A stretch of 63,498 nucleotides of DNA, the filler included. It is 7 parts of 7 records of this genome, joined end to end, with 100 filler letters (N's around TTAATTAATTAA, not from the genome) between each part and the next. Parts side by side here need not be neighbours in the genome. Positions count along the whole stretch, not along the records: positions 36,642 to 44,401 come from SRR31156797_35031; 6 more parts are not named here. The stretch is one strand, 5' to 3'. Position numbers and translations under genes: made by a program. Within the stretch, counting starts at the first letter, position 1. The number at the start of each line of letters is the position of its first letter. The notes beneath the pieces were generated by a model. That model was given only the letters and a program-made list of their open reading frames with translations. It was not told the DNA's origin and searched no databases. Shown here piece by piece: positions 13,968 through 58,483 of the stretch.

Positions 13968-14067
13968 NNNNNNNNNNNNNNNNNNNNNNNNNNNNNNNNN
14001 NNNNNNNNNNNTTAATTAATTAANNNNNNNNNNNNNNNNNNNNNNNNNNNNNNNNNNNNNNNNNNNN
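13968..14067. other. Artificial contig linker
   Basis: N-run, TTAATTAATTAA (stops in all frames), N-run; base composition changes abruptly across it. Confidence 0.98.
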
Positions 14068-20720: not shown

Positions 20721-20820
20721 NNNNNNNNNNNNNNNNNNNNNNNNNNNNNNNNNNNNNNNNNNNNTTAATTAATTAANNNNNNNNNNNNNNNNNNNNNNNN
20801 NNNNNNNNNNNNNNNNNNNN
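20721..20820. other. Artificial contig linker
   Basis: N-TTAATTAATTAA-N. Confidence 0.98.
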
Positions 20821-30368: not shown

Positions 30369-30468
30369 NNNNNNNNNNNNNNNNNNNNNNNNNNNNNNNN
30401 NNNNNNNNNNNNTTAATTAATTAANNNNNNNNNNNNNNNNNNNNNNNNNNNNNNNNNNNNNNNNNNNN
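30369..30468. other. Artificial contig linker
   Basis: N-TTAATTAATTAA-N. Confidence 0.98.
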
Positions 30469-36541: not shown

Positions 36542-36641
36542 NNNNNNNNNNNNNNNNNNNNNNNNNNNNNNNNNNNNNNNNNNNNTTAATTAATTAANNN
36601 NNNNNNNNNNNNNNNNNNNNNNNNNNNNNNNNNNNNNNNNN
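36542..36641. other. Artificial contig linker
   Basis: N-TTAATTAATTAA-N. Confidence 0.98.
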
Positions 36642-42100: not shown

Positions 42101-42259
42101 GACATCCTGAACTCAGGGGAACTCAAGCCCTACAGAGATGCCATCCTGACCAAAAAAATGGCATCCCTGGCCTTCTATAAATATGGCATCCAGTGGGAGG
42201 CATTCCTTGCAGACATTGACTACCGGTTTGAGGTGGCCTTGGCCAGTGCGGTGGACTGA
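39128..42259 (+). CDS. Large NAD-specific glutamate dehydrogenase (GDH2/GdhB-like)
   Basis: LKTNFY, DIARGGLRL, QRLKHKDICESGSKG, PDEGTA, TTGKS, MTGGPGGDLG, PCGG, IVEGANVF, KDSTANKGGV. Confidence 0.85.
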   Translation: MDIHLDPNVLAAKNTDIINTAQRVNLAPEVLYEAVIDLSSQGLLTARCINMAAHILLDQLGLPNYFFRNIGVESLKHLLGSIANSITVEDDKVRLFDRVAHVDFGLKKGGNFQRLRIATRETRDDMEKLLEDLIAGHSREYYYSPKNNYYTYIVRPETVRDFSGDDFNGSRFLFSLAGDYAATPESTRQRYESFLAACQTSVTPLIEVFNLPETGETRLMFNSDFARPQLPALRKLMNDHGYELIRAYWEPYRAQSDVPSSICSLYIQGELPRRREAALRADLGAFLCLGVNSMETLYVTETLTFREMLFASNAVGFTHLFIFRESDNAADREIIEGLATMDQKDVFASRIQSNNKSTYGSDLILKTAKSHPDLIKFLYNLFDRRFNPAHKTRPDPDALAEKHREFKKLISTRFMDNSLGYDIFNFMFKMVDCTLKTNFYKPEKRSFAFRFDNRILDPIVFSQFVYGIFYVNGHYACGTHLRAGDIARGGLRLIRVSASNHAAELDNAVLLNYALGPKTQRLKHKDICESGSKGVVVPHSLYADYCGDAISDYTEGIMDLVLGDPSIIDYFGEPEMVFFDPDEGTAPFMDAVSFRARDRGYNHWRTITTGKSFGIPHGTYGMLDNNDLFGLFNRGSNGVELQINEKSVTTTQDMDEIYDAIGGQIATSGMASSGIMSSFRALIRHSGHREEELNLMMTGGPGGDLGANVIQCYKGNICLIIDGGSVLFDPDGLDKRELIKIAFMRHTSPRADSLAYPAEKLGPQGFRVPLSAKNITLPDGTFVEEGTLFHRHFLYDPANRKRISQANIRAFIPCGGFKDTIRHGNVKQFVSMFKDLEFIVEGANVFFDNASRRYIAAHTAIRQIKDSTANKGGVFSSSIAEVLTAFLLGDDYEEKLLNDTTTRWALIRDIMLLVDEYATEETIMLIRLHEADRSVPLFVLSERTSEQIYAFQATLYNRISKLTSNHDLVWGVLEHYIPGILIRRLGKENILDILNSGELKPYRDAILTKKMASLAFYKYGIQWEAFLADIDYRFEVALASAVD

Positions 42260-42300
42260 TCTTGGCTGCCGGTCCTTTTCAACGATGCAAATACTGTTTT

Positions 42301-42318
42301 CACCGGTAAAAACCGGTG
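42301..42318 (+). terminator. Possible terminator hairpin after gdh
   Basis: CACCGGT-AAAA-ACCGGTG followed by TATTT. Confidence 0.4.
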
Positions 42319-42349
42319 TATTTCGCTTGTTGTGTTTAGTTTTCGGGGA

Positions 42350-42556
42350 TTGATTATAACGTCGGCCACTTTGGCCTGTCTTTTCAAAAAGTAAGAAATA
42401 ACATTGGATTACCTATCGTTGACAGCACTCCTGGTCGGTTTTCCGCATGGGCAACCCATAGGGAATCCGATATTGGGCGCTCTCAAATGCCCGTAATGCA
42501 ATGACATTTTTCAGTGCCTAAAGAAATAAGAACAAAGTGGTCGACGTTATAATCAA
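42350..42556. mobile_element. MITE-like element or internally deleted IS with 24-bp terminal inverted repeats
   Basis: TTGATTATAACGTCGGCCACTTTG (42350-42373) vs CAAAGTGGTCGACGTTATAATCAA (42533-42556), 23/24 complementary; no convincing gene inside. Confidence 0.6.
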
Positions 42557-42622
42557 CGCAGAAATTTCTAACCTCAATGGGTGCTTTAATTTGGATTATT
42601 TTCTCATAAAGATAAAAGTGAA

Positions 42623-42703
42623 GCCCGAGTGTCTGTAGTGTGTGTGCAGTTATGCTCAACCCAAATGATATAAAATATCGTTTGGGCCGTGTAGTGCTCG
42701 GGC
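42623..42703 (-). ncRNA. Putative DRT3-associated ncRNA core (true ends unknown)
   Basis: Begins 17 nt after the RT stop. GCCCGAG/CTCGGGC closing stem, inner hairpin CCCAAAcGATAT-TTT-ATATCaTTTGGG, and a CACACACAC tract at 42638-42646. Confidence 0.7.
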
Positions 42704-42720
42704 ATATGTAGCTAAACATA

Positions 42721-44400
42721 TTAATAAGCAGAACGCAACTCTTTTTTCTTTAAAAGCCTACGTATAGATAACTCATCCCAATCAACAAACCAATTGTTGC
42801 TCACCAGAGCTTTATACAAATCTTGTAACGACACTTTCGGTGAATAGCTATTTTCATAGGCAATTTTTAATATTGGTTTTTTAAATTGAGGTGATAGATA
42901 AGGACAACTCATAATGTCGAAAAGAAGATGCGTACATTCCGAATCTCTAAAAATATCATCGCAGTTTTTAATCTTTAATCTGGTAAATTTGCACAGTATC
43001 TTTTTTAAATTTGAATAATAATTGTCATCCTTAATGCAATAAAGGCCTACAATGATTTGAAAATAGTTTAAAGATTTTGTTGAGTCAGTTATGCCTATGA
43101 GTATCGACAAGTCTTTCTCTGTAACCTTTATATTGCTGTTCAACTCCTTAAGAGCTATGGCTAAATTTAATGTCTCTACTTTATCAGCTTTTTGGGGCAA
43201 TTGTTTTAGAGCGAATTTGGATTCAGACATGATTTTGTCTGTAATTAATATTTCGCTGTCATAGTCGAACTGTTTGGCCACTTTAGAAAAGTTGATTATT
43301 ATTTCGCTTAATAAAAAAGTTGCCCTAACTCTGCTATCCATCGAATATAAAAAATACGAAAGTTCTATTAAAATGAGAATGTATCTGCATAAATTGGCTG
43401 AAGTGTCTTCATCAAAACCAGTTTCTTCTCCTATGTGTAAAAAATCAAGAGATAATTTGCGTAAAATAGTTAAAAAATAACCGCTAATACTTTCGTAGTT
43501 GATTTTGTTTTTTTTTACTATTGATTTGAATTTTGTAATGTATGTATTTGATATTTTTGAATAAAAACTAAGATTCTTGTCTATCGTTAAAGTCTTTTCT
43601 TTAATGTTAAGAGATAGAGGGGCTTTTAGTTTTTCAAAAAAAGACCTTATTTCAAATTTTGACTGTGTAACACCCGTTAAAAAAGGTCTTTCAAAACTTT
43701 CGTCTTTAGACTCATTGATAAATAATTTGAATTTTGCCAACTCTTCTATAGCGATGGATTTGATTCTATCTATATCGTATGGATCATTGTAAAAGACAAA
43801 ATAATCATCAACATAGCGTTTGATTTCATAGTCAACCTTATTGCTTAATTTAATATCGCTAAGTCTGTTCTTTATATTATTATCAATCTTCTGCAATAAC
43901 ATTTCAGCGTAAATTCGTGAAAACTCAGGACCAATAACTATTCCATGTGAACGACTATAATTAAGGTTAATAATTAACTCTGAAAAGACTTCTTCAAAAG
44001 ACGTTGTATCTGTTGCTCCCTTGTGCTTATCTTCCCCTGTAATGGCGATCGGTAGCATCTCTGCTGAAAGGTTCTCAAAACATTTTGATATGTCAAATTT
44101 GTGGAGTCCTTTAAATTTTCGTTCTATTCTATGAAATTCATAAGAGTCGTAAAATTTATATAAAAAACTATATTTCTTGTATGTGAAAAAAGAACTTGCA
44201 TATATCGGTGTCGATTCGTCATTATCATCTTTGATGTCCACCCCTTCATCTTTAATTTTGCTCTCAATCTCTTCAGAAGAAGATTGGACGTAACTGTGCG
44301 CTAATTTGTAAGGGTGCCTTAAAGAATATTCACTGCCTGAACATCTGAATGTGATAAGTTCATTGTATTTTCGATAAAAATCACAGAAAAGATATTGATT
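42721..44400 (-). CDS. drt3b: Antiviral reverse transcriptase, Drt3b-like (5' truncated)
   Basis: Frame open to the contig edge (NQYLFCDFYRKY..SEYSLRHP); FDISKCF, GIVIGPEFSRIYAE, KRYVDDYFVF, LFINESK, ERPFLTGVT; C-terminal WFVDW..LLKKKELRSAY. Confidence 0.85.
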   Translation of the reverse strand, partial: NQYLFCDFYRKYNELITFRCSGSEYSLRHPYKLAHSYVQSSSEEIESKIKDEGVDIKDDNDESTPIYASSFFTYKKYSFLYKFYDSYEFHRIERKFKGLHKFDISKCFENLSAEMLPIAITGEDKHKGATDTTSFEEVFSELIINLNYSRSHGIVIGPEFSRIYAEMLLQKIDNNIKNRLSDIKLSNKVDYEIKRYVDDYFVFYNDPYDIDRIKSIAIEELAKFKLFINESKDESFERPFLTGVTQSKFEIRSFFEKLKAPLSLNIKEKTLTIDKNLSFYSKISNTYITKFKSIVKKNKINYESISGYFLTILRKLSLDFLHIGEETGFDEDTSANLCRYILILIELSYFLYSMDSRVRATFLLSEIIINFSKVAKQFDYDSEILITDKIMSESKFALKQLPQKADKVETLNLAIALKELNSNIKVTEKDLSILIGITDSTKSLNYFQIIVGLYCIKDDNYYSNLKKILCKFTRLKIKNCDDIFRDSECTHLLFDIMSCPYLSPQFKKPILKIAYENSYSPKVSLQDLYKALVSNNWFVDWDELSIRRLLKKKELRSAY

Positions 44401-44401
44401 G

Positions 44402-44501
44402 NNNNNNNNNNNNNNNNNNNNNNNNNNNNNNNNNNNNNNNNNNNNTTAATTAATTAANNNNNNNNNNNNNNNNNNNNNNNNNNNNNNNNNNNNNNNNNNN
44501 N
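44402..44501. other. Artificial contig linker
   Basis: N-TTAATTAATTAA-N. Confidence 0.98.
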
Positions 44502-58383: not shown

Positions 58384-58483
58384 NNNNNNNNNNNNNNNNN
58401 NNNNNNNNNNNNNNNNNNNNNNNNNNNTTAATTAATTAANNNNNNNNNNNNNNNNNNNNNNNNNNNNNNNNNNNNNNNNNNNN
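58384..58483. other. Artificial contig linker
   Basis: N-TTAATTAATTAA-N. Confidence 0.98.

Follow-up and report, generated by a model that had tools for sequence, protein, structure and literature searches.

In the DRT3 (UG3 + UG8) anti-phage system of Escherichia coli, the noncoding RNA (ncRNA) encoded downstream of drt3b has a loop with the conserved sequence 5'-ACACAC-3' (Wang et al. 2026, PMC13174585). According to that paper, mutation of this loop abolishes both defence and poly(dTdG), which is made by Drt3a on the ACACAC template. In the same account, poly(dCdA) synthesis by Drt3b needs no nucleic-acid template, Y666 serving as the primer and E22 and R241 as the gate; a stem-loop beside the template limits read-through. 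The structure of DRT3a with its RNA is described in a preprint (10.64898/2026.06.29.735271) as having two anchored stem-loops which frame the template, and Deng et al. (2026, Science) are cited by a commentary and by a preprint on DRT10 for a 6:6:6 complex. The template RNAs of DRT10 and DRT9 and telomerase RNA resemble that of DRT3 in possessing a short internal template, held by anchored stems and reused for tandem repeats. All three differ from DRT3 in reverse transcriptase clade, template and product, DRT10 making a 7-nt repeat and DRT9 poly-dA, and among the four systems a second reverse transcriptase for the complementary strand is found only in DRT3.

The window analysed here is a stretch of DNA of 63,498 bases. 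An element on its minus strand, at approximately 42615-42709 (core 42623-42703), is in all probability (about 0.88) the ncRNA gene of a DRT3 system. Four lines of evidence from the present analysis bear on this identity: the nature of the adjoining gene (drt3b), the fold of the RNA, the conserved position and AC tract, and RNA homology to four relatives.

A close published counterpart is the 161-nt EcoDRT3 ncRNA of E. coli ECOR12 (PMC13174585, Table S3). As given there it shares with the window's RNA a position in cis, immediately behind drt3b and on its strand, and begins with the 5' strand of a closing stem, which encloses the core and a single-stranded AC template; in both, the template has a hairpin directly on its 5' side and is connected to the closing stem by a short joiner. 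The two RNAs differ in the size of the core, with 133 nt between the closing-stem strands and an ACACAC template in E. coli versus 81 nt and ACACACAC in the window. In E. coli the template-side hairpin is stem-loop 4 and a separate terminator hairpin follows, whereas the window's RNA has one long hairpin and a 3-bp hairpin and is without a terminator hairpin. Outside the tract no sequence likeness between the published EcoDRT3 ncRNA and the window's RNA was found. The E. coli RNA belongs to the long form described below, its published first bases being the closing-stem 5' strand that was computed in two identical viral-contig loci (L205, L206).

The drt3b gene and the contig end

The original prediction placed the element directly after a reverse transcriptase, and the adjoining gene was identified as drt3b by PADLOC, tblastn and matches in the PDB. 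The PADLOC match (PDLC02176, E 1.1e-148) covers profile positions 140-651 of 651, and begins at position 140 because the drt3b frame runs into the end of the contig at 44401. Pfam RVT_1 scored 28.9 bits in this open reading frame, slightly below the cut-off of 29.6. The PDB matches were 26cz_A (E 2.4e-80) and 9z6y/9z6z, "Drt3b reverse transcriptase" (E 2.6e-61); 26cz_A is taken to be the tagged E. coli Drt3b of Wang et al. (PMC13174585), since its residues fit the numbering of that paper at an offset of 108. The window's protein is 34% identical to the Drt3b of E. coli EC261.

Using tblastn, two full-length homologs aligned from their residue 93 or 115 to the end, reaching 44397-44400. The visible part of drt3b comprises 559 open codons and about the first 80-115 residues are missing. 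In the PDB alignment the YVDD motif is intact, as are the residues corresponding to EcoDRT3b D182, I183, F187, R241 and the priming Tyr666; the counterparts of the published gate residues E22 and R71 belong to the missing N-terminus.

The window consists of seven contigs with six N44-TTAATTAATTAA-N44 joints (13968-14067, 20721-20820, 30369-30468, 36542-36641, 44402-44501 and 58384-58483). Its segments have G+C contents between 0.33 and 0.61, and the bin may be mixed. Genes on opposite sides of a joint are not adjacent in the cell, and the oxidoreductase gene past the 44402 joint is part of a different contig. A 12,870-nt contig of DNA run X1, possibly the window's own source, spans 42300-44401 with zero differences; it extends approximately 9 kb past 44401 and only approximately 1.8 kb the other way, so the assemblies break at different places. 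Since it runs past 44401, drt3b was cut by the assembly and not in the cell. Among the sequencing runs listed as containing this stretch, X1 is the only one, and there is no RNA run.

A DRT3 locus with two reverse transcriptases had been proposed. Drt3b is present in part, but the second enzyme is not: no Drt3a was found anywhere in the window by tblastn with two Drt3a queries, the contig ending inside drt3b. Judged by the related loci, the DNA upstream of 44401 would hold the rest of drt3b followed by drt3a, and probably also a SLATT effector gene.

It is decidedly unlikely that the RNA gene, though genuine, belongs to a dead remnant which has lost drt3a or in which drt3b is truly truncated. 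A remnant might look like this, with only a partial drt3b and no drt3a in view, in an AT-rich island of foreign DNA at a contig end. The break in drt3b coincides, however, with the artificial joint, and the X1 contig continues past it; the visible codons are all open, with the catalytic and priming residues kept, and the RNA retains all of the parts modelled in its relatives (R2, below).

The element was said to stand out in AT-rich DNA, and the local G+C content is indeed 0.30-0.36 versus 0.52-0.60 in the flanking genes. The island made up of drt3b and the RNA (42260-44401) has 26-36% G+C and the adjoining housekeeping-type genes 52-60%; its neighbours are a 1043-codon glutamate dehydrogenase and a PPDK-like protein with a receiver domain. 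The low G+C content of the island fits horizontal acquisition. There is no tRNA on the element's contig. No promoter-like site was found upstream of the element, the single nearby one on the minus strand lying downstream, which fits co-transcription with drt3b.

Sequence and fold of the element

Read from the window, the minus-strand bases at 42623-42720 are exactly those of the original prediction, which had described a GC-rich closing stem enclosing a hairpin and an unpaired AC tract. RNA folding confirmed this arrangement in the core. Over 42615-42730 the minimum free energy (MFE) computed with ViennaRNA is -33.0 kcal/mol, versus -16.7 +/- 3.0 for 200 dinucleotide shuffles (z -5.47; 0/200 as good), and neither the MFE nor the centroid structure pairs the AC tract. 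When the sequence is folded within 281 nt, the centroid retains the structure, with a z of only -2.1. The core begins 18 nt past the drt3b stop codon on the same strand, and the AC tract 75 nt past it. The parts of the RNA are listed in Table 1.

Table 1. Features at the putative DRT3 ncRNA gene, and SLATT genes of related loci (positions refer to the window unless a locus is named)
Feature	Position	Strand	Basis or remark
drt3b (UG8-type reverse transcriptase), 3' part only	42721..44401	-	PADLOC, Pfam, tblastn, PDB
drt3b stop codon	42721-42723	-
Small 6-bp hairpin overlapping the last base of the drt3b stop codon	42704..42721	-	fold
ncRNA, extent by covariance model match	42615..42709	-	R2, 35.4 bits, E 9.2e-7
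P1, 5' strand of closing stem, GCCCGAG, 7 bp with CUCGGGC	42697..42703	-	fold, covariation
J1, single-stranded 7-nt joiner, CACUACA	42690..42696	-	unpaired in fold; several columns invariant
P2, long hairpin, ~14 bp, two bulges	42657..42689	-	fold
Single A between P2 and P3		-
P3, mini-hairpin, 3 bp, GCA / UAAC / UGC, abuts template	42646..42655	-	fold
Template ACACACAC, single-stranded	42638..42645	-	fold, conservation
AC tract as originally delimited, CACACACAC	42638-42646	-	includes last C of P3 at 42646
J3, 8-nt joiner UACAGACA, template to P1	42630..42637	-	fold, alignment
Second CACUACA	42634-42640	-
P1, 3' strand, CUCGGGC	42623..42629	-	fold, covariation
Contig joint, 44 N + TTAATTAATTAA + 44 N	44402..44501	.	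G+C differs across joint
SLATT genes of relatives	L139:1018-1608, L135:848-1486, L141:883-1497, L156:853-1536, L173:892-1536, L216:997-1587, L217:1091-1597

Taken singly, the components are less striking. The 9-mer CACACACAC occurs once in the window, counting both strands, against an expectation of 0.18, and one or more copies are present in 15 of 100 shuffles. The closing stem by itself is modestly unusual, its score being reached by 72 of 2000 flank shuffles. P3 is weak by itself (3 bp); by eye, a hairpin ends at the first template base in all four of the relatives compared below, and P3 is likely to be the template boundary. At the place of the small hairpin beside the drt3b stop codon, short palindromes were seen by eye in two of these relatives (L215 and L216).

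Relationship to RNAs of Vibrio, Aliivibrio, Psychromonas and Alishewanella

A protein search with the window's Drt3b gave a best match of 71% identity, followed by a group at 48-52% from Vibrio, Aliivibrio, Psychromonas, Pseudoalteromonas and Photobacterium. On the tree the protein is sister to the Drt3b of Alishewanella (L139; support 0.999); it is 50-51% identical to the Vibrio-group proteins, and 44-51% across the four relatives used below. A scan of viral contigs with the closest protein alignment found nothing.

As a check on the original prediction a covariance model had been proposed, built from the regions downstream of drt3b homologs. Such a model, R2, was made from four loci with the window excluded: Vibrio anguillarum (L215), Aliivibrio logei (L216), Psychromonas (L217) and Alishewanella (L139). 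It matched the element over its full length (model positions 1-85; Table 1). R2 has four source sequences, two of which are almost identical, and its E-values are rough. With filters off this was the only significant match on either strand of the whole window, the next best having an E-value of 5. In a search of 424 kb from 50 sources the window's element was recovered with an E-value of 6.1e-6; beyond the training sequences the only further matches were a locus from Enterobacter (E 0.26) and an echo of L139 on the reverse strand (E 0.05).

In the five-sequence alignment 97.5% of the P1 cells pair and three of the eight pairs show compensatory double changes, a result reached by 4 of 500 shuffles. 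Likeness of the flanks to single relatives, with the tract excluded, was not significant; the best, to L139, was reached by 296 of 3000 shuffles.

The RNAs of all four relatives share the order P1, 7-nt J1, P2, P3 abutting the template, 8-nt J3 and P1, with a nearly identical P1 and with J1 and J3 conserved. The counterparts of J1 are AACUAUA, AAUUAUA, UAUUAUA and AAAUAUA, and those of J3 are UACACUUA, UACACUCA and UAAAGAUA. P2 differs, being about three times longer in the window (~14 bp versus 4-5 bp), and the R2 alignment places a 25-nt insertion in the window's P2 loop. The window's RNA belongs to a compact subfamily, defined here, with a core of 57-81 nt versus 133 nt in E. coli.

The original prediction also drew attention to CACTACA, said to occur twice. 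Both copies are present, but the exact repeat alone is not significant, about 0.26 repeated 7-mers being expected in 98 nt by estimate. The two CACUACA copies map to J1 and to the border of template and J3, and coincide with positions conserved in the four nearest relatives, which there have NAYUAYA and CAC-UAMA; the exact duplication is peculiar to the window's copy in the five-sequence alignment. A role for the repeat in pairing or realignment was rejected: the two copies, being of the same sense, are unable to pair, and none of the relatives has the exact repeat.

Conservation of the AC tract after drt3b

Loci with drt3b were gathered from genome, metagenome and viral collections. Those with a truncated C-terminus, insufficient DNA downstream or a duplicate downstream sequence were left out, as was the E. 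coli locus L214; the count covers 132 unique loci in which the Drt3b C-terminus is complete and 300 nt or more of DNA follows the gene. Conservation of the AC tract in homologs, on which the original prediction depended, was borne out: (AC)3 or longer was present on the same strand within 400 nt in 128 of the 132 loci, 125 of them within 200 nt. Among control windows of 400 nt from the same loci, (AC)3 or longer was found in 165 of 3438 (4.8%). The four exceptions (L057, L147, L035 and L043) have CACACA, ACACGC or CACACG at the expected place, and may be decayed copies or templates giving a different or shorter repeat.

This conservation bears on whether the element is only a terminator, or a stabilising 3' structure, of drt3b, in which the AC tract is incidental. 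Such a structure might be read from the GC-rich long-range stem and the pyrimidine/U-rich tail 3' of it, and no separate terminator hairpin follows the element, as one does past the closing stem in relatives from E. coli, Enterobacter, Aeromonas and Pseudomonas. Yet the terminator scan predicted no minus-strand site in 42200-43000, the tract recurs in 128/132 loci versus 4.8% of controls, and the relatives have kept both the joiners and the placement of the tract between P3 and P1. We regard a purely terminating function as very improbable; a terminator role is in any case compatible with a template role.

It is extremely improbable that the stretch is protein-coding. A 78-codon open reading frame (42483-42719, minus strand) starts immediately behind the drt3b stop codon and extends across the element, but it has no Pfam or PADLOC family, and the tract lies inside a same-strand open reading frame of at least 60 codons in only 28 of the 128 loci, where the median longest frame is 37 codons. 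The changes in P1 are, moreover, compensatory in the manner of an RNA, and the frame is probably spurious. The chance that a dinucleotide microsatellite merely happens to lie beside fortuitous hairpins is negligible: although such a 9-mer (15/100) and the stem alone (72/2000) do arise in shuffled sequence, the element lies less than 100 nt from the drt3b stop on the right strand, with a fold z of -5.5, an R2 match of E 9e-7 and a tract conserved family-wide.

Short-form and long-form RNAs

In most loci, those of the short form, the tract lies 24-56 nt after the stop codon. The short form comprises most of the loci from Bacteroidota, Alphaproteobacteria, Acidobacteriota and Pseudomonas, and is represented by alignment A1, which holds 58 non-redundant sequences out of 95 such loci (example L019:5487-5627). 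A1 supports a closing stem, a template-abutting hairpin, a terminal hairpin and a pseudoknot; 89.9% of its cells pair and double changes occur in 23/23 pairs, a result reached by 0/500 shuffles. The pseudoknot joins a YCCGYYC motif just past the closing stem to the GGGRCGG loop of the terminal hairpin through 6 pairs, 92% paired and all with double changes. A literature search for DRT3 with a pseudoknot found no description, although the supplements of the preprints may hold more.

Like the window's RNA, the short-form RNA follows drt3b and has a closing stem enclosing a CACACAC template just before its 3' strand. It is unlike the window's RNA in the closeness of the tract to the stop codon and in its pseudoknot, and R1, the covariance model built from the 58 sequences of A1, did not match the element on the window's contig with filters off. 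R1 likewise gave no match in L002, L046, L049 and L051, where the tract sits 128-357 nt from the stop codon; on the Drt3b tree these four loci and the window form a separate clade.

Long-form RNAs have a long-range closing stem, with the tract close to its 3' strand. Conservation of the stems in homologs, a further point of the original prediction, was seen in part: 34 of the 53 long-form loci have a closing stem enclosing the tract that outscores 95 or more of 100 shuffles. An AAUAC motif noticed by eye in some long-form RNAs was dropped, being present in only 21 of 54. The MAFFT alignments of these heterogeneous RNAs (A3, A4) were structurally meaningless and were not used for a model. Rfam 15 held no matching family; at E-values up to 1 it gave only two chance microRNA-like matches elsewhere.

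SLATT genes and island context

A SLATT gene (RT-associated; PADLOC PDLC03819, E 4e-17 to 6e-33) lies directly upstream of drt3a in all seven of the nearest relatives examined (Table 1). In some it overlaps drt3a, and the operon reads SLATT-drt3a-drt3b-ncRNA. The order SLATT-drt3a-drt3b is seen in L215, L216, L217 and L139, whereas the window's contig ends before that position. The DRT3 locus of E. coli EC261 (L214) has no SLATT gene; it lies between tRNA-Thr with an integrase and P4-like satellite genes. In Alishewanella a tRNA-Arg (L139:4899-4975) is found approximately 100 nt after the RNA on the opposite strand, and it seems that DRT3 islands integrate at sites linked to tRNA genes.

The DRT10 preprint mentions DRT3 loci linked to SLATT and cites cluster 7 of Mestre et al. 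(2022). A literature search for DRT3 with SLATT found neither the RNA of this branch nor the role of SLATT described, though preprint supplements may hold more. With considerable doubt, a joint reading may be offered. There would be a SLATT-coupled branch of DRT3, mostly in marine Gammaproteobacteria, with an RNA pared down to the closing stem, one hairpin, the boundary mini-hairpin and the AC tract; J1 (NAYUAYA) and J3 (UAMA...A) would be real protein contacts, the length of P2 would be free, and the GT/AC DNA would switch on the membrane SLATT effector instead of the RecBCD-linked route of E. coli.

Proposed mechanism

It had been predicted that the AC tract is copied repeatedly into poly(GT) and that the second reverse transcriptase makes poly(AC). 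This scheme agrees with the E. coli findings of PMC13174585 and would apply to the window's copy by homology, the enzymology of which we infer from the published E. coli work. The drt3b visible in the window would, by the same published account, encode the enzyme which needs no RNA template; the reader of the RNA would be Drt3a.

The RNA would probably be made as a 3' extension of the drt3b transcript. In the folded molecule P1 and P3 would frame the single-stranded ACACACAC, and by analogy they fit the two template-flanking anchors, with approximately 17 single-stranded nucleotides between them. Drt3a would bind the RNA and copy the tract repeatedly, slipping back on the repeat to give poly(dTdG), and Drt3b, primed from its C-terminal tyrosine, would produce poly(dCdA) without a nucleic-acid template. 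The two strands would then anneal to GT/AC double-stranded DNA, which would be tied to growth arrest during infection.

Significance

The type of RNA, its template and the two-enzyme mechanism were already published in 2026, and there is little new in them for the field. For the window, the element marks what is predicted to be an unannotated functional RNA gene, and the adjoining partial reverse transcriptase would be part of a DRT3 defence island and not a stray retroelement. The RNA helps to define a compact RNA subfamily of SLATT-bearing DRT3 operons which is invisible to the short-form model. Comparison within this subfamily separates the parts that are kept (P1, J1, P3, the template and J3) from P2, which is freely variable, and this may be useful for a minimal DRT3 scaffold or for better search models.
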